This document shows positions 43,957 to 60,245 of a stretch of 64,000 nucleotides of DNA, in pieces (position 1 is the stretch's first letter; every line of letters starts with the position of its first letter). The position numbers and the translations under genes were made by a program. The notes under the pieces are model-generated. The model was not told where the DNA came from. It worked only from the letters and a program-made list of their open reading frames with translations, and made no database searches. The DNA comes from Spirochaetia bacterium (lineage in GTDB: Bacteria; Spirochaetota; Spirochaetia; UBA9216), in assembly GCA_963675665.1 (NCBI GenBank), contig OY776510.1, positions 2,304,001-2,368,000 on the forward strand. The letters run 5' to 3'.

Positions 43957-44784
43957 CTATAGCTTCTGGCAGCTGCCACAAAAGTATACGCTTCCGCCCA
44001 TGTATGCTGCTTTTTCAATAGGGGTGCCGCAGGTGACGCACTTTGTGCCTGCTGTGTTTTTGCTCATTTTTGTCCGGTAACCGCCCGGTTTTCCAAACAG
44101 GTCTTTTTCCGTGTCGCGGCCTCCCTTCTCAATGATTTCACCCATTGTGGTGCGGATTGATTCATAAAGGTTCTTTACCTCGCCTTGCGACAGACTGTCC
44201 CATCTGCGTTTCGGATGAATGCGGGCATTATACAATATGTCCTGAAGCACGCCGTTTCCGAGACCCGGAATGCGCTGTTCGGTTGCAATAACGAATTTCA
44301 CGCTTTTATTTTTTAATTCGCTTCCGCCGGTTAAAGACAAGAAATACTCCGGGCTAAAATCCGGGCCCAGCAGATCGGGTTTGCTGACGGCCCCCCGGTA
44401 GTAATCATTATCATAATCATCCGTGTCCGCGCAAATTATTCCGCCGTACATCTGTATTGAGGCGCTGAGGTATGACTTATCTGTAAACCTGACCAGCAGC
44501 TGGTGTTTTTTCGGAATATTGGAATCATCCGGGTGACTCGCAAGTTTTACGCCGTCGCTGAAAACAAGCATTTTGTCCCGGACCTGAACCTGAATCATCC
44601 CTCCGCGGCGCAGCGCTCCTTCAATTCTTTTCCCCGCAAGCTGCTGATGGTATTTCTCGGGTTTCCCGTTGTACCAGGCGAATTTATTCGGCGAGAAAGC
44701 TGCCGTAACGTTTTCAATTTTTTTACCTGTCAATACACGATTGATCTGTTCGGCAATAACTGCCGCTTCCGGAAGTTCCAGCAT
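43957..44784 (-). CDS. Fpg/Nei family DNA glycosylase-like protein
   Basis: MLELPE N-terminus, H2TH motif IPGLGNG..QDIL..ARIHP, C-terminal CxxC...FCxxCQ zinc finger. Confidence 0.88.
   Translation of the reverse strand: MLELPEAAVIAEQINRVLTGKKIENVTAAFSPNKFAWYNGKPEKYHQQLAGKRIEGALRRGGMIQVQVRDKMLVFSDGVKLASHPDDSNIPKKHQLLVRFTDKSYLSASIQMYGGIICADTDDYDNDYYRGAVSKPDLLGPDFSPEYFLSLTGGSELKNKSVKFVIATEQRIPGLGNGVLQDILYNARIHPKRRWDSLSQGEVKNLYESIRTTMGEIIEKGGRDTEKDLFGKPGGYRTKMSKNTAGTKCVTCGTPIEKAAYMGGSVYFCGSCQKL
43961..44014. repeat. Right direct repeat (within the 3' end of the nei-like gene)
   Basis: 51/54 identical to 13956-14009. Confidence 0.9.
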
Positions 44785-44938
44785 ATAAATACCCCCGTTT
44801 TCATTGTTGATTATACTATGAAAAGATTCCGGGCGATATATAAATTATGCTTTGCTGACCAGCAGCAGATATCCTGAAATCAGTGCAAATCGCTGCCCTG
44901 CGCATACCCGGTATTCATCCGTAGCTGTATGCACAGAT

Positions 44939-45030
44939 AAAAAATCCCCGCCCGATGAATGTTTATCGGGCGGGGTAAAAGGAGGTTATGAAAATTCAGC
45001 ATTACAGCACTTGTCCCTGTTGTAATGCCG
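44939..45030 (-). ncRNA. Candidate ~90-nt trans-acting sRNA with anti-SD/anti-start motif
   Basis: 5' hairpin (GCAUUACA/UGUAAUGC), single-stranded UUUUCAUAACCUCCUUUU, 11-bp GC terminator stem plus U6. An extended -10 and direct-repeat box lie upstream. Confidence 0.6.
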
Positions 45031-45035
45031 GTAAC

Positions 45036-45100
45036 AGGATACCAAAAAACTGAGGGGCGTTGGTTAAGGGCATGTAAACTGAATGTAAACAATGTAAAAA
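45036..45100 (-). promoter_or_regulatory. OmpR/PhoB-type direct-repeat box and -10 for the candidate sRNA
   Basis: Minus strand TTTACA-ttg-TTTACA-N5-TTTACA-N5-TTAACC, then TGgTATCCT. 33/41 identical to 57651-57691. Confidence 0.65.
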
Positions 45101-45149
45101 AGAAATGCTGTTTTATCGATTCCCCGTGGTTAATACTGTCTTAAAATTC

Positions 45150-45175
45150 AAAAAGACCGCCCTGCCGGGCGGCCT
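45150..45175 (-). terminator. Intrinsic terminator of asd
   Basis: Minus strand AGGCCGCCC-ggca-GGGCGGTCT followed by a T run. Confidence 0.8.
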
Positions 45176-45212
45176 GAAAAAATCGATATGTTTACTTGAA
45201 ATGAACGCTGCA

Positions 45213-46328
45213 TTACCCCAGATGCTCAAGCACAATCTTTATCATTCGTCTGACCGGTTCGGCGGCTCCCCAAAGCAGCTGATCTCCGACCGAAAAGGCT
45301 GTCAGGTATTCGTTACCCAGATTCATCTTGCGCACGCGGCCGACCGGAACGGTAAGGGTTCCGGTAACTGCAGCCGGAGTCAGCTCTGCCAAAGTGGCGG
45401 ATTTTTCGTTCGGAACGAATTTTACCCAGTCGTTATGAGAAGAGATGATATTCTGTATCTCATCAAGCGGAATATCTTTTTTCAGTTTAATTGTAAAAGC
45501 CTGGCTGTGACACCTCATTGAGCCTATTCTTACGCATTGCCCGTCTATCGGAATCGGCGAGTCTTCCCGGCCGAGTATCTTGTTTGTTTCCGAAATACCT
45601 TTCCATTCTTCTTTTGTCTGTCCGTTTTCCATTGGGGCGTCAATCCAGGGGATAAGGCTTGCGGCAAGCGGCGCTCCGAAGTTCTGGATCGGAAAAGTTT
45701 CATTGCGTAAGGTAGAAGTGATTGTCCGGTCAAGATCAAGTATAGCCGACGACAGGTTGTCCAGATCCGGCGAAGCGTTTCCTGTTATCTGCATTTGTTT
45801 AACCAGCTCGCGCATATTTTTTGCGCCGGCGCCCGATGCCGCCTGGTATGTCATTGACGTTAGCCATTCTACAAGATCTTTTTCAAAAAGTCCGCCGAGC
45901 GCCATAAGCATAAGCGATACTGTGCAGTTCCCGCCGATATAGTCTTTTATACCCGAAACAAGTCCGTTATCGATTACAGATTTGTTTACAGGATCAAGCA
46001 CTATTATACTGTCCTTGTTCATTCTGAGTGTTGAGGCAGCATCAATCCAGTAGCCTTCCCAACCGGCGGCTCTGAGTTCAGGATGCACCTTTGTAGTGTA
46101 AGAACCGCCCTGACATGTCACAATTACATCCATTGTCGACAGACTTTTAATGTCGTAAGCGTCTGCCAGAGGGGGCGTTGCAACGCCGATATCCGGCCCT
46201 TTCTGTCCGGCTTGTGAAGTCGAGAAGAAAAGCGGTTCAAAGCCGTTAAAGTCCTTTTCAGAAAGCATTCTTTCCATCAGAACCGAGCCGACCATGCCTC
46301 TCCATCCGATGAACCCTACTTTAACCAT
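45213..46328 (-). CDS. asd: Aspartate-semialdehyde dehydrogenase
   Basis: [44 protein letters not shown]. Confidence 0.97.
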
Positions 46329-54208: not shown

Positions 54209-55596
54209 GATGCGCTCCTCATGGCTTGTGCCGGATCAATTTTCATAAACTGCCTGGACGGTATCAGTCCGAACAAAACAGTCATCATTCCGGCCAGTAC
54301 GGCGCCCAATGCTATGTAAAGCCATGAACCTGTTTCAATTCCTGCAGCAGTTTCCATATAGCCGCTTAACGGTACGGCAAGCAGTGCGCCTGCAGCTCCG
54401 CCTGATATTGCAAGAATCAGGGCTTCAGACAGAAAAAGTTTTCTTATACTGTTTTTTGATGCTCCCAGGGCCATCAGAATGCCTACATTCTTTTTCATCC
54501 GAAGTACCCGGCTCATAAGAATGTTTGATACGTTTACAAGCGCAATAAAAAATCCGGCAGCTGAAAGAAACAGAATGAGCGCGCCTATACCGGTGTTCCT
54601 TGAAACAAGTTGCTCTGCTTCGGCGCGGGGATTGGATATTACCACCTGTTCGTCGCCGAACTGCGATGAAAACCAGTCGTTCAGCAGTGTTGCTGTTGAG
54701 TCAAGATCCTCAGGATCCGCAACCGCAAACCGAAGCTGGGTATTCATGAACATCCTTCTGAATCCTTCCATTCCGCCTGTCCGGTCCTTGTATGGAGCAA
54801 AGAACTGCATGTCATAGCTGTCTGAAACAGGGGCAAGTATTCCTATTATTGTCTGATAACCGTCTCTTGCAAGAAGCTTTTTGCCCAGCAGTTCCGAAAC
54901 GTCCATATCATCTCCGGCAATAAGTTCCGCAAGATCCGCGCCGAGGACAATCAGGTTATCGGTGCCCGACAGATCCGATTCGGAGAACAGGCTGCCGGCG
55001 GCGGCTGTTATGTCCCAGGAACTGAAGAACTGGGGTGTAACCTCGTACCCGGAAACCTCATCCAGATCAGACAGAATTATGTTTGAGTCGGCTTCAGCCG
55101 CAGCAAGATCTTCTTCTGAAATCATCTGGAAACCGGGGCCCGGGGCTCCTTCAGGCATTTCCGAATTGTCAGGGGCAGCAGCCCCGTCTTCTGCCGAAGC
55201 GTTCTCAGGCGCCTCCATTCCTTCGGGAGGTCCGAAATTATTTGAATCGGATGATATAAGATGCAGACGGCTGTGGTTCTGTACATACGCCCATTCTACT
55301 CCCGGCGCCAGTTCCGCCGCTTCAAGATCCGAAACGGTCAGAACCGCGGTTTCCTGAATAAGTTTTTCCTTTACCGGCGTCTCCATTTCACTCGATTCGC
55401 TTCTGGTGCTTACGATAAGTTCCTTGTATTCAGGTGATCTCATAATTTCATTGGAGAACTCGACAGTGTTCATTATCAGCGACAATCCTGCCGAGAATGC
55501 ACCGATACCAAGCGCCACCGCAATAATAAGCAGTCCCGACTCGAGCGTACGATTGCGGAACCTGCGCATTATGATTTTAAAGGGTTCGTTAAGCAT
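54205..55596 (-). CDS. MacB/FtsX-type ABC permease
   Basis: VGILMALGAS, FLSEA, IDPAQAMR. Confidence 0.9.
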   Translation of the reverse strand: MLNEPFKIIMRRFRNRTLESGLLIIAVALGIGAFSAGLSLIMNTVEFSNEIMRSPEYKELIVSTRSESSEMETPVKEKLIQETAVLTVSDLEAAELAPGVEWAYVQNHSRLHLISSDSNNFGPPEGMEAPENASAEDGAAAPDNSEMPEGAPGPGFQMISEEDLAAAEADSNIILSDLDEVSGYEVTPQFFSSWDITAAAGSLFSESDLSGTDNLIVLGADLAELIAGDDMDVSELLGKKLLARDGYQTIIGILAPVSDSYDMQFFAPYKDRTGGMEGFRRMFMNTQLRFAVADPEDLDSTATLLNDWFSSQFGDEQVVISNPRAEAEQLVSRNTGIGALILFLSAAGFFIALVNVSNILMSRVLRMKKNVGILMALGASKNSIRKLFLSEALILAISGGAAGALLAVPLSGYMETAAGIETGSWLYIALGAVLAGMMTVLFGLIPSRQFMKIDPAQAMRSAS

Positions 55597-56281
55597 TCCC
55601 GGCCTCCGCATACGAAGAGCTGCTGTTAAGAATTCCATCGTGAAGTTCGATTACATAACCGGCCCGCTTTCCCTGTTCAGGGTTATGGGTTACCATAACT
55701 ACGGTAACGCCCTTGCGGTTCAACGATTCAAGTATCTCCATAATTTCTTCGCCTTTGTCAGAAGGAAGGTTTCCGGTCGGCTCGTCGGCGAGAATAAGAT
55801 CCGGATCGTTTGAAAGGGAACGGGCAATTGCAACCCTTTGCTGTTCTCCTCCGGAAAGCATGGTTGGAAGATGCGTCAACCGGTGTCCAAGTCCCACTTC
55901 ATGAAGAAGCTGTACGGCTTTTTCCTTTCTTGTTTTGAATGGAAGCCCTGCGTAACTCATCGGCAGCATTACATTTTCTACGGCGGACAGTTCCGGAAAA
56001 AGGTTGAAACTCTGGAATATAAATCCGAAATGTTTATTGCGAATTCTCGCCTGCTCCTTATCCGGCAATGCCGTGATATCATAATCTTCAAGGTAATATT
56101 TTCCGCTGGTGGCACTGTCAAGAATGCCGAGTATATGCATCATGGTTGATTTTCCGGATCCCGACGGTCCCATTATTGCAGCATAATCGCCGCGGTTGAT
56201 TTCAAGTGATATATCTTTGAGAGCGGTTACTGTGGTGCCCCCAAGATCGTATTGTTTGCTGATTTGTTCTAATCTAATCAT
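55589..56281 (-). CDS. ABC ATP-binding protein (LolD/MacB type)
   Basis: GPSGSGKST, LSGGEQQRVAIAR, ADEPTGNL. Confidence 0.95.
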   Translation of the reverse strand: MIRLEQISKQYDLGGTTVTALKDISLEINRGDYAAIMGPSGSGKSTMMHILGILDSATSGKYYLEDYDITALPDKEQARIRNKHFGFIFQSFNLFPELSAVENVMLPMSYAGLPFKTRKEKAVQLLHEVGLGHRLTHLPTMLSGGEQQRVAIARSLSNDPDLILADEPTGNLPSDKGEEIMEILESLNRKGVTVVMVTHNPEQGKRAGYVIELHDGILNSSSSYAEAGNA

Positions 56282-56293
56282 AATAATCTCCAA

Positions 56294-57589
56294 TTACTTT
56301 AAGACGACAACGTCTTCGTCTATAAAATTCTGATAACTGCTTGTTATTATTTCATCACCGGCAGTCAAACCGCTGAGAACCTCAACAGTGGTTCCTTCAA
56401 TTGATCCGAAAGTAACCTTTGTTTTATACGCTTTTCCGTCTTCAACTTTATAAACCCATTTCTGGCTGCCGGTCGTCAGGTATGAGCCGCGCGGCAGCAT
56501 AATTACGTCTTCTTCCACACCCAGGGTAATACTTGCGACAGCCGACGCCCCGGGGGTCAAAGTCTCTTCAGTAACAGGCTTTGCCCTTACAGTTATCATT
56601 GCAGAAAGTCCGTCTGAATCCATTGATGCAATTTTTCCAATCTTTACAATTTCAGCCTTCATTGTGTCAGACCCGATAGTGACTGTCATTTCACCGCCGA
56701 TTTCAAGCTGATCCACGTACTGCTCATACACATCAAAGTCGATATAGGATTCGGTACGATCGGCTACAATAAAAAGTTCGTCCGCTTTTTCTATCACGCT
56801 GCCCGGAATAGCCAGATCTTCATTTATACTGAGAACTTCGCCTGCAATCGGGCTTTTAACTTTTGTGTCCTCAATATCTTCGTTTATATTCTGAAGGTTT
56901 GTTCGAATCTGGGTTATAGCGGCCTGCTGTTTTCGCAGAGCAATATCTTTCTTTATTTCAGTTTCTTCAAGGCTGATCTGATAGTCTTCTTTCTGTTCAT
57001 AAAGTGTTTCGAGTTCATCAACTGCTGTTTCGTAATCTGTCAGGCGGGAGCTTTTCAGTTCTGAAAGTTCCTTAAGAGCCTGCACGTCTTCTTCCGCTTC
57101 GGTAATATCCTGTTCAAGACGTTTCAGCTGGATATTCAGATCTTTCAGCTGATAATCATAATCAGTATTTACAGATTCAAGCTCAATCAGCGCCTGTTCA
57201 AGACTGACCGTGAGTTCTTCCTGAGTGTCTTCAAGATCAGGCACATCAAGAGTTGCAAGAATATCTTCTGTTGTTATCAGGGTTCCTTCTTCGGTAAGCA
57301 GTTCATCTGCATACCCGTCGGCAGTACTGACGATGGTAACCTGGGCAGGGAGCACTACAGTTCCGCTTGCTTCGGTTGTTGATACAAGTTCGCCTGAATA
57401 TACTTCGGCTGTTGTATACGACTTGATGCTGACCGCTTCCGCCGATGCCTGCATTCTGAAAAAGATGAATGCGGCTGCGCCTATTGCCACAACAGCGGCA
57501 ATAGTAATTATTCTGCCGGCGCGTTTCTTTTTGGAAGCTGCCGGCCGGATGTTTTCAATGTTTATTATTCTTTCCTGTTCTGATCCCAT
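56294..57589 (-). CDS. Periplasmic adaptor / membrane fusion protein (MacA-like)
   Basis: TM anchor, long coiled coil, VKSPIAGEV, VEVLSGLTAGDEII. Probable start MGSEQ follows a GAGGA RBS. Confidence 0.9.
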   Translation of the reverse strand: MGSEQERIINIENIRPAASKKKRAGRIITIAAVVAIGAAAFIFFRMQASAEAVSIKSYTTAEVYSGELVSTTEASGTVVLPAQVTIVSTADGYADELLTEEGTLITTEDILATLDVPDLEDTQEELTVSLEQALIELESVNTDYDYQLKDLNIQLKRLEQDITEAEEDVQALKELSELKSSRLTDYETAVDELETLYEQKEDYQISLEETEIKKDIALRKQQAAITQIRTNLQNINEDIEDTKVKSPIAGEVLSINEDLAIPGSVIEKADELFIVADRTESYIDFDVYEQYVDQLEIGGEMTVTIGSDTMKAEIVKIGKIASMDSDGLSAMITVRAKPVTEETLTPGASAVASITLGVEEDVIMLPRGSYLTTGSQKWVYKVEDGKAYKTKVTFGSIEGTTVEVLSGLTAGDEIITSSYQNFIDEDVVVLK

Positions 57590-57626: not shown

Positions 57627-57691
57627 AATATACTTCGACGGACAGACGGTTTGGTTAAGGGAATGTAACTGTTTTGTAAACTATGTAAAAA
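57627..57691 (-). promoter_or_regulatory. OmpR-type direct-repeat box and -10 of the exporter operon
   Basis: Minus strand TTTACA-tag-TTTACA-N5-GTTACA-N5-TTAACC, with TATATT at the same offset as in 45036-45100. Confidence 0.65.
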
Positions 57692-57751
57692 GCGGAACCG
57701 TGAAAAAGAAGTTTTATAGCGAAAAAGTTGCAGAAAGGTTATTATAGTAGA

Positions 57752-59515
57752 ATGAAACATGAGAGAGTGCTTTCAAGAGCGTTTAACAGTCTTGTAGCGG
57801 TAATAGTTGCCTCAGTCTTGTCAATTGCAATATTTTTTGTGTATAAGACATATGAAAAAAGTGTCGAGACCGATATATTCAGGTATTCGCACAAACTTGA
57901 AGATTCGATAAGACGCATCGCAGCAGCAGAGTACCGAAGATATTTTCTGCTTGTCGATTTTGCAAAAACGGCCGGCACCAAGAACTCCGGAAATTCTATC
58001 GAGAAGATCCTTGAAGAGAAATCAACTATTCTGGGGAAGAACGGAGAGATTCCAAATCTTGTATCAAGTATAGGATATTATGACTCCTCTTCTCCTGAAT
58101 CTGCTTTGGAATATGATTTTGAATACCGTGAATGGTCGGAGCTGGATAATATTTTCAACAATGACGAACCTGATCGCAAGTCCGACTTTTTTTATGTCCG
58201 CTCCGGTTCCGCCCCGGAAAAATTGTACCTTGCGGTTGATAACGGCAGCACAGGCCGGGTGATTTTTTTCAGAGTGGATCCCCAGGGGTTTCTGGATAAT
58301 TATATCAGGGAAGTTGTGGAGAGTTCCAATGAAGAATTCAGGGTTGACTGGCTTAGAGGTTCCGATCCGGAATCACGCAGGATACTGGAAGATTATTTCG
58401 AATATGAATTGCTTCAATATCATTTCCGTCCGATGCAAATCCTTCTGAAAACCGGAAGTCAAAACCAGCCTTTGATAGTCGAAATTCCGATAATGTTCGA
58501 CATCAGACGTGTTTTTGATAACGGAAGTGCAGAACAGAAAGATGTAAATGATTTAAAACCGGGAAAGCCGATGTTTTTTGATTTCAGTTATTTCGTAAGG
58601 ATGATGCATAAAGATGGTTCCTACTATTATGAGATTGAACACGATGCGGCCGTAAGTTTTTTCGAAACAATCATAATCTTCATTACGATTGGAATACTTT
58701 TCATACTGCTGCTGTTCCAGCTTCAGAGGACCAGGCTTTTAAGAAGCAAGGAAAAGGAATTTGTTGCTTCAGTTACGCATGAGCTCAGAACTCCGTTGAC
58801 CGTCATTCGTTCTGCTGCTGATAACCTTTCAAACGGGATTGTGAACAAGGATAAATTGCCGGTTTACGGCGGGCTGATTATTGAGCAGTCGGAACGTCTG
58901 GGAAACATGATCGAAGAAATTCTGCTCTATTCAAATTTTGAGAATAAAAACAGTAATTCCGGAAAACCGGTGAAGTTCGATTTTAAGGAGGTTGTTTCAC
59001 AGTTTAAACCGGCTCTGGATGAGCTGGGTAATGCCGAAGGACTGAAACTTCACTGGGATATAAACGGACTGCCCGGAAAAGCCGAGAGTTTTCCTGATGT
59101 TATTACGCTTACTGTGAATAATCTTGTATCCAACGCTGTTAATCATGCTTATTCTGTTCCCGGCGGTGAAATCCGGATAATTATAAGATATCTGGTTCCG
59201 GGAAGATTGAGCATAACGGTTGAGGACGACGGACGGGGAATTGATCCGCGTGAGCTTAAGCATGTTTTTGAGCCTTTTTACAGAGACTATGTGAGCCGGA
59301 GCCGGCAGGAGAGGGGCAGCGGTCTGGGACTGTTTATTGCGCGGCGCAAAGCTGCTTTATGCGGAGGCAAGCTGACCGTCGAAAGCCCTTACAGAAGAAT
59401 CGACGGGAGCAAACTGTCAGGATGCAGGTTTGTATTGACGCTTCCCTGTACAGAGGCTGACGACTCCGCTAATATAAAACAAAAAACCTTAAAGGAGCCT
59501 GAAAATGGCCGCTGA
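57752..59515 (+). CDS. Sensor histidine kinase (HisKA + HATPase_c)
   Basis: Two TMs; THELRTPL, NLVSNA, DDGRGI, GSGLGL. Confidence 0.95.
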   Translation: MKHERVLSRAFNSLVAVIVASVLSIAIFFVYKTYEKSVETDIFRYSHKLEDSIRRIAAAEYRRYFLLVDFAKTAGTKNSGNSIEKILEEKSTILGKNGEIPNLVSSIGYYDSSSPESALEYDFEYREWSELDNIFNNDEPDRKSDFFYVRSGSAPEKLYLAVDNGSTGRVIFFRVDPQGFLDNYIREVVESSNEEFRVDWLRGSDPESRRILEDYFEYELLQYHFRPMQILLKTGSQNQPLIVEIPIMFDIRRVFDNGSAEQKDVNDLKPGKPMFFDFSYFVRMMHKDGSYYYEIEHDAAVSFFETIIIFITIGILFILLLFQLQRTRLLRSKEKEFVASVTHELRTPLTVIRSAADNLSNGIVNKDKLPVYGGLIIEQSERLGNMIEEILLYSNFENKNSNSGKPVKFDFKEVVSQFKPALDELGNAEGLKLHWDINGLPGKAESFPDVITLTVNNLVSNAVNHAYSVPGGEIRIIIRYLVPGRLSITVEDDGRGIDPRELKHVFEPFYRDYVSRSRQERGSGLGLFIARRKAALCGGKLTVESPYRRIDGSKLSGCRFVLTLPCTEADDSANIKQKTLKEPENGR

Positions 59516-60245
59516 AAAGAAACGAATACTGATAATTGAAGATGAACCCGGAGTTCAGATTACACTTGAGGACAGATTATCATCCGAAGGATACGAAGTT
59601 TCTGTCTGCGGCGACGGTATTGAAGGCGAAAAAGAAGCAAAAGCCGGCCGCCATGATCTGATACTGCTTGATGTGATGTTGCCGGGAAAGGACGGTTTTA
59701 CAATTTGCCAGGATCTTCGGAAGGCCGGGGAGGAAACTCCGATACTGATGCTGACCGCCCGCGATACCAGCATAGATACAATAATGGGGCTTCGTGTGGG
59801 TGCCGACGATTATCTGGCAAAACCGTTCGACATGCAGGTACTGCTGGCGCGGATTGAAGCGTTGTTGAGGAGAGCGGGCCGGCCCAATCCTGCAGCAACG
59901 CCGGAAAGCGGCTCTGTACGGGAAGGTTCTGGCGGGGACAATGATATCATCATTTTCGGCGGGTTTACTCTTGACCGCGGGAAGGGCCTTTTGGAGAACG
60001 ACGGGGCTGCTGTTGAACTGAATGCCCAGGAATATAAACTTCTTGAGTATCTTGCTGTCCACAGCGGGCGGATAATAAGCCGGAACGCCATTCTTGATGA
60101 TGTCTGGGGATATGAGAGTGAGGTAACGACCCGAACGGTAGATGTCCATGTCGCAAAACTCAGGCAGCGGTTGGGCGAATCGGAACGGCCTAAACATATT
60201 CAGACTTACAGAGGCAGGGGATATAAATTTGTTCTGAATGCGTGA
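59505..60245 (+). CDS. OmpR/PhoB family response regulator
   Basis: IEDE, LLDVMLP, GADDYLAKPF, TRTVDVHVAKLR, RGRGYKF. Confidence 0.96.
   Translation: MAAEKKRILIIEDEPGVQITLEDRLSSEGYEVSVCGDGIEGEKEAKAGRHDLILLDVMLPGKDGFTICQDLRKAGEETPILMLTARDTSIDTIMGLRVGADDYLAKPFDMQVLLARIEALLRRAGRPNPAATPESGSVREGSGGDNDIIIFGGFTLDRGKGLLENDGAAVELNAQEYKLLEYLAVHSGRIISRNAILDDVWGYESEVTTRTVDVHVAKLRQRLGESERPKHIQTYRGRGYKFVLNA

Follow-up and report, generated by a model that had tools for sequence, protein, structure and literature searches.

A predicted regulator-controlled small RNA with complementarity to the start of a porin-like gene in a Spirochaetia bacterium

Results

Organisation of the intergenic region downstream of asd

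The DNA analysed here, referred to as the window, is a stretch of 64,000 nucleotides from a Spirochaetia bacterium; coordinates without a genome prefix are counted from its first letter. The genome that contains it (G000) is a single 5.15-Mb contig with 43% GC and carries three FlaA (PF04620) genes, compared with none in 14 control genomes. On the minus strand of the window, asd (45213–46328; Pfam Semialdhyde_dh/dhC) is followed by its terminator (45175–45154, minus strand reading) and, further downstream, by an fpg/nei-like gene (43957–44784). The intergenic DNA between the two genes holds a predicted small RNA (sRNA) of 92 nt (44937–45028, minus strand), whose 3′ end lies 152 nt before the fpg/nei-like gene on the same strand.

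A candidate response-regulator box precedes the sRNA and consists of three TTTACA words (45098–45093, 45089–45084 and 45078–45073, minus strand). An earlier, sequence-only reading of this locus had recognised the direct-repeat array, and the three repeats are present, but the uniform 11-bp phasing that it described does not hold: the start-to-start distances are 9 and 11 bp (TTTACA-N3-TTTACA-N5-TTTACA). The −10 hexamer TATCCT (45036–45041, minus strand) stands exactly 31 nt after the last TTTACA, within the extended −10 stretch TGGTATCCT (45044–45036), and a TAACCA element (45061–45066, minus strand) is placed between the box and the −10, where it may lie in the −35 region. A sigma-70 consensus scan of both strands of 44600–45400 returned no promoter. 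Our promoter call is based on the conserved distance between the box and the −10; a −35 match plays no part in it.

We infer the 5′ end of the RNA to be 7 nt after the −10 hexamer and its 3′ end to be in the U tract. The transcript would begin with a 5′ hairpin (44999–45028), of which the loop and the 3′ strand read GGACAAGUGCUG. This is followed by the single-stranded tract UGAAUUUUCAUAACCUCCUUUUA (44976–44998), which contains UUUUCAUAACCUCCUUUU at 44993–44976 and, within it, an anti-start CAU (44990–44988) and an anti-Shine–Dalgarno (anti-SD) CCUCC (44985–44981). The intrinsic terminator (44937–44975) has an 11-bp stem with nine GC pairs and an 8-nt loop, and ends in AUUUUUUAU. Folding of the 92-nt RNA gave a minimum free energy (MFE) of −34.9 kcal/mol (z = −6.5), which none of 200 shuffled sequences equalled, and the tract is unpaired in both the MFE and the centroid structure. 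The elements that the sequence-only reading had listed downstream of the asd terminator, namely the box, the −10, and an RNA of about 90 nt in which an unpaired UUUUCAUAACCUCCUUUU stands between a 5′ hairpin and a strong terminator, are all confirmed on the minus strand by sequence and fold.

The RNA had been thought probably undescribed, and the comparison with Rfam agrees. No family reached its gathering score anywhere in the window; at E values up to 10, the best match at the locus, anti-hemB, scored 20.5 bits where 49.5 are required, and csRNA models were not among the matches listed.

Between the sRNA terminator and the fpg/nei-like gene, we also observed a 26-nt element, GGTATGCGCAGGGCAGCGATTTGCAC (44883–44908, minus strand), which is single-copy in G000. 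The element occurs with 83–94% identity in intergenic DNA of two other genomes (twice in G008 and also in G010), and one of these copies precedes an unrelated gene by about 100 nt. An operator or promoter role is possible. A sigma-54 reading of 44883–44908, made by eye, was rejected, as one homologue lacks the GC of the −12 element.

Homologues of the sRNA

A blastn search over the 11 family genomes, a set identical to that of the order, found two full-length homologues, both in the congeneric genome G003 (L018:1496–1587 and L009:1458–1554, minus strand). A covariance model (R1) built from these two sequences and the window RNA returned just the three RNAs in the 11 genomes at E ≤ 0.001, the window RNA scoring 103.7 bits. 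The RNA family is present in two of the 11 genomes, and the strict pattern GGACAAGTGCTGN{6,30}TTTTCAT in two of 401 sampled genomes of the class. The phylogenetic depth is shallow and the two bearing genomes are kin. The shorter pattern GGACAAGTGCTGN{6,30}TTTCAT matched at least 117 and at least 120 stretches of metagenome and genome contigs; these were dismissed as chance matches, none of the 237 screened having more than one TTTAC-like word upstream.

The three copies share one architecture. Each has three TTTACA words, the TAACCA word, 31 nt to a TAnnnT hexamer, and a further 7 nt to GCA(U/A)(U/A)AC, followed by the hairpin, a U-rich tract with CAU and CUCC, and the terminator. The TG of the extended −10, which the sequence-only reading had correctly seen in the window, is absent from both homologues. 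The 12-nt GGACAAGUGCUG is invariant in all three copies and its opposite strand varies, and the gap from CAU to CUCC is 2, 3 or 5 nt. The stems differ in sequence among the copies (GCAUUACA/UGUAAUGC, GCAAU/AUUGC and GCAU/AUGC). Covariation, which had been proposed as a check of the RNA, could be examined and is weak, with a double change in just one of 19 pairs in an automatic three-sequence alignment that is itself partly misaligned. Both G003 RNAs have fold z-scores of −3.4, and the frequency of the MFE structure is 0.38–0.66. The layout with an unpaired tract is kept in the window RNA and in the copy on contig C12 of G003 (G003:C12), and the MFE structure of the copy on contig C15 (G003:C15) adds a weak hairpin that partly covers the tract.

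By its sequence, the locus has the features of a trans-encoded regulatory sRNA gene: a promoter of its own, an intrinsic terminator, and conservation that follows structure rather than codons. This comparison points to a genuine sRNA gene family, narrowly distributed and not filed before.

The TTTACA box in the two genomes

The box pattern TTTACANNNTTTACN{6,8}TTACA occurs five times in G000 and six times in G003, while the reversed pattern, used as a control, occurs in neither. The TTTACA box is more than chance would give and has the marks of a specific regulon motif. A 41-nt stretch of the sRNA promoter recurs with 86% identity in the same window (57691–57651), where the second box copy (57664–57689, minus strand), again 31 nt from a −10-like hexamer (TATATT), lies in the promoter of a macA-like/ABC efflux operon. 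Downstream of this box are genes on the minus strand for a HlyD/MacA-like membrane-fusion protein (56294–57589; Pfam HlyD_D23, HlyD_3) and an ABC ATPase (55589–56293; Pfam ABC_tran). Divergent from the operon, the plus strand encodes a histidine kinase (57728–59515; Pfam HisKA, HATPase_c) and an OmpR/PhoB-family response regulator (59505–60245; Pfam Response_reg, Trans_reg_C).

In G000, the box precedes the sRNA and the macA-like operon, as well as genes for an orphan OmpR-type regulator, a membrane protein and a TolC-like protein. In G003, it precedes the two sRNAs, a macA-like gene divergent from a kinase gene, a regulator gene and two TolC-like genes. The macA-like/kinase locus of G003 is about 10 kb from the asd-linked sRNA, as it is in G000. 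The distance of 31 nt to TAnnnT was found at 10 of 13 examined sites and at all four further sites in G003; the exceptions to this geometry comprise a box without a −10 (G010:C3:1566421) and three sites without a box match. The word (C)TTAACCA or TAACCA stands at an equal offset in the promoters of the window sRNA, the window macA-like operon, the macA-like genes of G005 and G001, and both G003 sRNAs.

The sequence-only reading had taken the box to be of OmpR type, and the array is indeed common to efflux genes that lie beside a histidine kinase/OmpR-family pair. On this evidence, the sRNA gene is very probably regulator-controlled, and the kinase/regulator pair at 57728–60245 is most likely the controller of the box. 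Two OmpR-type regulators, 32% identical to each other, adjoin such boxes and either could be the cognate one.

The orphan regulator gene has neighbours of its own. At G000:C1:1690061–1693050 (L329:560–3550), the boxed regulator gene is followed by genes for a 363-aa secreted protein, whose terminus, DVDF, is barrel-like, and for a 273-aa secreted protein. The region possibly represents another envelope module of this regulon.

Complementarity to the start of a porin-like gene

The predicted target came to notice through weak R1 matches (E = 0.32 in G000 and 0.046 in G003), both of which were antisense to the start of one gene. In G000, the gene (859447–861270) is strongly promoted (TTGACA/TATAAT) and has a structured leader and GGAGGAAG. 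Its protein of 607 aa bears a signal peptide and ends in F. A Pfam search of the protein returned no family, and its 14 sequence homologues, assigned to Spirochaeta or Spirochaetes by their sources, are unnamed or hypothetical. A congeneric relative with a 5.38-Mb genome encodes this protein at 93% identity. An AlphaFold model calculated from a 15-sequence alignment (mean pLDDT 71.8, pTM 0.49) has about 20 long strands and a helical insert. Nearly all of the top Foldseek matches listed are outer-membrane barrels; a porin of R. blastica is the best of them (E = 1.7e-6), followed by AlgE, OmpG, MOMP and OmpU. The TM-scores are low (0.2–0.5), and ‘porin’ is used here for the fold class only. The model predicts an outer-membrane β-barrel, which we take to be a channel.

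RNA nucleotides 1–53 were scored as duplexes with positions −35 to +45 of 12,826 heuristic initiation sites that had to combine an SD-like word with a start codon and no fewer than 70 codons, collected without a gene caller. Site 859447 had a raw duplex energy of −42.3, ranking second of 12,826 (mean −21.5, s.d. 4.3), and came first, at −16.0, when the top 400 sites were re-ranked with a crude accessibility correction; this ranking is not an independent discovery, because the gene had first been noticed by sequence similarity. Opening was estimated to cost 11.3 kcal/mol on the sRNA side and 15.0 on the mRNA side, for a net energy of about −16, and the long complementary block sits inside the RNA's own hairpin. 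The sites that come next after 859447 in the corrected ranking are mostly other signal-peptide-like genes (MKK..., MRKK...). With the antisense of the RNA as a blastn-short query, no single target stood out and many RBS-like partial matches were obtained.

The complementarity is exceptional in the second genome as well. The two G003 RNAs reach −57.8 and −50.3 with the orthologous G003 site, and none of 3,500 background sites, drawn at random from G000, was as low (minima −44.1 and −42.1). Extensive pairing with this one gene, over the SD, the start region and codons 4–10, is predicted for all three RNAs. For the window RNA, the predicted helices cover the SD (−17 to −13), the start region and +10 to +30, with sRNA nucleotides 10–25 pairing with mRNA +10 to +25 and nucleotides 5–8 with +27 to +30. 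The 5′ hairpin is complementary to codons 4–10.

The promoter, the 5′ UTR and the first eight codons of the target are conserved in six genomes of two genera, and the mature proteins diverge. UAGCACUUGUCCU is invariant at synonymous sites. Solely in G000 and G003, the two sRNA-bearing genomes of the six and themselves kin, a GCUGUAC extends the duplex, a co-occurrence with the RNA that is suggestive. No gene for Hfq (PF17209) was found in G000, which is 96% complete, and a control search matched five of 14 genomes. This result fits a long-duplex pairing that is independent of that chaperone.

The conserved upstream part of the target can also be described as a unit. The cassette at G000:C1:859317–859480 (orthologous loci L292–L296) comprises the promoter, the leader and eight codons, and is 84–93% identical in six genomes. 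The proteins that it drives are outer-membrane-barrel-like, and their mature parts are unalignable between G000 and G003. The cassette looks like a fixed expression unit ahead of a fast-evolving surface protein.

Related hairpin-loop elements

Elsewhere in G000, an sRNA-like unit (C1:1693126–1693196, plus strand; L329:3627–3697) combines a small 5′ hairpin with the anti-SD UUUCCUCC behind a TTGCCG-N17-TATTAT promoter, and its terminator loop carries UACAGGACAAGUGCUG, the 12-mer that the window RNA also has. The boxed orphan regulator gene and then the two secreted-protein genes lie upstream of this unit, the regulator gene at a distance of about 2 kb, and a homologue is present in L307 (G002:C278). 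A further element (C1:5124309–5124398, minus strand; L285/L330) follows directly after a stop codon and forms the hairpin GGGGGGACGUAAGGACAAGUGCGUUAUCCCU, with the same AAGGACAAGUG loop on a different stem; a second hairpin with CCCCUCC in its loop comes next. Three of the five GGACAAGTGC sites in G000 are in hairpin loops, those of the window RNA, the 1693126 unit and the 5124309 element, and the 10-mer itself occurs at background frequency in the family genomes. Scored whole against the porin-like site, the two other GGACAAGUGC-loop elements were not outstanding: the background was as low in 166 of 3,000 cases for 1693126–1693196 and in 85 of 3,000 for the other.

A separate sRNA-like element of about 100 nt was seen in three genomes of two genera (L277, G010:C1:170037–170137, plus strand; L278, G008:C6:1051658–1051758, minus strand; L284, G004:C15:72913–73016, minus strand). 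An unpaired UUUUCUAAACACCUCCUUUUUUAAUCAACCUCCUUU, carrying two anti-SD words, separates its 5′ hairpin from its terminator. The three copies agree letter for letter from this tract onward to the terminator, and L284 has a different 5′ hairpin. No TTTACA box accompanies the element, and no copy of it was found in G000.

A broader model, which we regard as speculative and rather doubtful, would connect several of these loci. In a spirochete envelope-stress regulon, one TTTACA-box regulator would induce MacAB/TolC-type efflux and at the same time turn on sRNAs that arose as inverted duplicates of the major porin-like gene's 5′ end. A portable, porin-silencing GGACAAGUGCUG loop would be reused in unrelated scaffolds (the window RNA, G000:1693126–1693196 with its G002 homologue, and G000:5124309–5124398), all converging on one deeply conserved leader/signal-peptide cassette that drives hypervariable surface barrels.

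Discussion

Proposed circuit

The sequence data are best read as a MicF-like sRNA that is induced by a regulator and silences a porin-like gene. We consider this reading reasonably probable as a whole, with a strong prediction of a single target; the expression of the RNA and the repression of the gene are predictions. An OmpR/PhoB-family response regulator would bind the three TTTACA words, 31 nt upstream of the −10, and switch on transcription of the RNA of about 92 nt. With the same box in front of the MacA-like, ABC and TolC-like efflux genes and a regulator gene, activation of the regulator would induce efflux genes and RNA together. The RNA would act in trans as an antisense regulator: its exposed loop GGGACAAG and the tract with CAU and CCUCC would nucleate pairing with the porin-like mRNA, from where the duplex, formed by the tract and the hairpin GGACAAGUGCUG, may spread over the SD, the start and the early codons and block ribosome loading. 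With the envelope/efflux regulon on, the porin-like channel would be off. The main interpretation of the sequence-only reading, a translation-repressing sRNA behind a response-regulator box, is supported in this form.

The same complementarity could belong to an RNA with many targets. Such a generic, csRNA-like blocker of ribosome-binding sites would be regulator-dependent and use a short anti-SD/anti-AUG seed against many mRNAs, especially those with AUGAAAA starts, and the long match to the porin-like gene would be a trace of origin. The unpaired and conserved tract and the many RBS-like partial BLAST matches are in keeping with this, as is the signal-peptide-like character of at least six of the 11 top corrected sites (e.g. 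MKKALSILIVML, MKKALFTAMMVL); csRNAs are described as acting in this way (PMC3091779). However, a seed would not account for the invariance of the 12-nt GGACAAGUGCUG opposite a varying strand, which indicates a constraint on sequence beyond the seed. The variable spacing between CAU and CUCC and the extreme duplex energies of all three copies with one orthologous site also argue against it, and we think a generic blocker unlikely. The complementarity could, moreover, come from ancestry as an inverted duplicate of the gene's 5′ end, rather than from function. Taken to its extreme, this would make the locus a decayed inverted copy of the porin-like RBS and signal-peptide start, without a functional RNA, left by chance between a box-like repeat and a terminator. 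The plus strand does mirror the GGAGG...ATGAAA...GCACTTGTCC of the target, and the distribution is narrow. Yet three copies in two species keep the exact promoter geometry, a hairpin that has survived changes in its stem and, on the antisense side, a terminator, and indels break the coding frame while promoter, hairpin and terminator persist. The box, for its part, appears to be a specific regulon motif. A relic of this kind is very unlikely.

The position of the RNA also allows it to be a cis-acting leader of the fpg/nei-like gene, with the terminator as a regulated attenuator. That gene is on the same strand, and in G003:C12 an unrelated same-strand ORF begins 36 nt away, after a weaker U tract. 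The syntenic copy, G003:C15, which lies directly after asd, faces a convergent gene, so the RNA is not the leader of whatever lies downstream, and the three copies precede three unrelated genes. No alternative antiterminator was seen, the frequency of the MFE structure is 0.38–0.66, no riboswitch or leader family of Rfam matched, and the fpg-like gene has a TATAAT-like element of its own just upstream. We find an attenuator highly improbable. On the plus strand, an open reading frame of 21 codons (44988–45053) encodes the Cys-rich peptide MKIQHYSTCPCCNAGNRIPKN, which had been offered as an alternative product, possibly with the RNA as its antisense partner. The ORF exists and AGGAGG precedes its ATG, but the gap between SD and ATG is 2 nt, and the scan of 44600–45400 showed no plus-strand promoter, nor was a terminator found on that strand. 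The corresponding peptides of the three copies (MKIQHYSTCPCCNAGNRIPKN, MKKLLQSQHLSLLYC and MKKVLSISALVPAVMLNIIY; 21, 15 and 20 residues) are unrelated. Because the conserved nucleotide block falls in a different reading frame in each copy (2, 0 and 1), conservation follows the RNA and not the codons, and we reject the peptide: a micro-protein is barely credible here. In our judgement the ORF does not code for protein and probably mirrors, in decayed form, the RBS, start and signal-peptide codons of the target.

Significance of the locus

We return to the proposed regulator-induced, porin-silencing sRNA. From sequence alone, the locus offers a complete candidate circuit that runs from a sensor kinase with its regulator through a DNA box to efflux genes and an sRNA, and the pairing of this sRNA with its one predicted outer-membrane target is mapped. 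Two-component-dependent sRNAs that occlude ribosome-binding sites are known; new here is the predicted pairing of all three RNAs with one outer-membrane barrel gene. The papers listed by a literature search on spirochete sRNAs of this type were reviews and work on Borrelia, none of them on a two-component-controlled anti-RBS sRNA in free-living or Treponema-like spirochetes, and little seems to have been written on the regulatory RNAs of spirochetes other than Borrelia. If the reading is true, the logic of porin down and efflux up through an sRNA would have arisen independently in a distant diderm phylum without Hfq, and the locus would illustrate clearly how an sRNA can derive from the 5′ end of the gene that it targets.

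Comparison with known systems

The csRNAs of streptococci, to which the sequence-only reading had likened the RNA, are present as several copies per genome and have two stem-loops that flank an unpaired stretch complementary to SD and AUG; their promoters carry a CiaR site, (N)TTAAG-N5-TTTAAG, that ends 10 nt before the −10 (PMC3091779). Measured against that description, the parallel stands for the layout: two stem-loops, an unpaired anti-SD/anti-AUG stretch, a direct-repeat response-regulator site and several copies per genome. It fails for the box, which here is TTTACA three times at 31 nt, in contrast to the CiaR site at 10 nt given there, and it fails for homology and host, with no match to a csRNA Rfam model and a diderm spirochete instead of a Streptococcus with CiaRH. 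Unlike that of the csRNAs, the complementarity here runs 20 nt into the coding region of one gene. The RNA is not a csRNA and resembles one in layout only.

The classical antisense RNAs CopA/CopT, RNAI/RNAII and Sok/hok start their pairing by loop–loop kissing and are encoded in cis, opposite their target. The window RNA is like them in that its 8-nt hairpin loop, GGGACAAG, is perfectly complementary to the target's CUUGUCCU. As the sRNA hairpin is nearly palindromic, the target stretch CUUGUCCU can itself sit in a hairpin loop, and the position of the longest helix within the sRNA hairpin suggests a loop–loop start. In contrast to the classical cases, the RNA gene and its predicted target lie about 1.5 Mb apart.

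MicF is about 93 nt long, and in E. coli MarA, SoxS and Rob raise both micF and acrAB-tolC, which would match the occurrence of efflux genes and the sRNA under one box here. EnvZ–OmpR is reported to control MicC, MicF and OmrA/B, and MicC and MicF to repress ompC and ompF (PMC5175337). The window RNA would share with MicF, MicC and OmrA/B the combination of an OmpR-family regulator and pairing at the translation-initiation region of an outer-membrane β-barrel gene, each a prediction in our case; the MicF-type pairing with a porin mRNA ranks second of 12,826 sites raw and first corrected. It differs from MicF in having no sequence or Rfam relationship to it, in its spirochete phylum with no Hfq gene found in G000, and in its TTTACA box at 31 nt from the −10. 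The pairing, too, is unlike that of MicF, being tripartite and with the longest helix inside the coding region and the sRNA's own hairpin. Since the complementarity reaches beyond SD and AUG into codons 4–10 of one porin-like gene, OmpR–MicF–ompF, rather than a generic blocker of ribosome-binding sites, appears to be the closest functional analogue of the proposed circuit.
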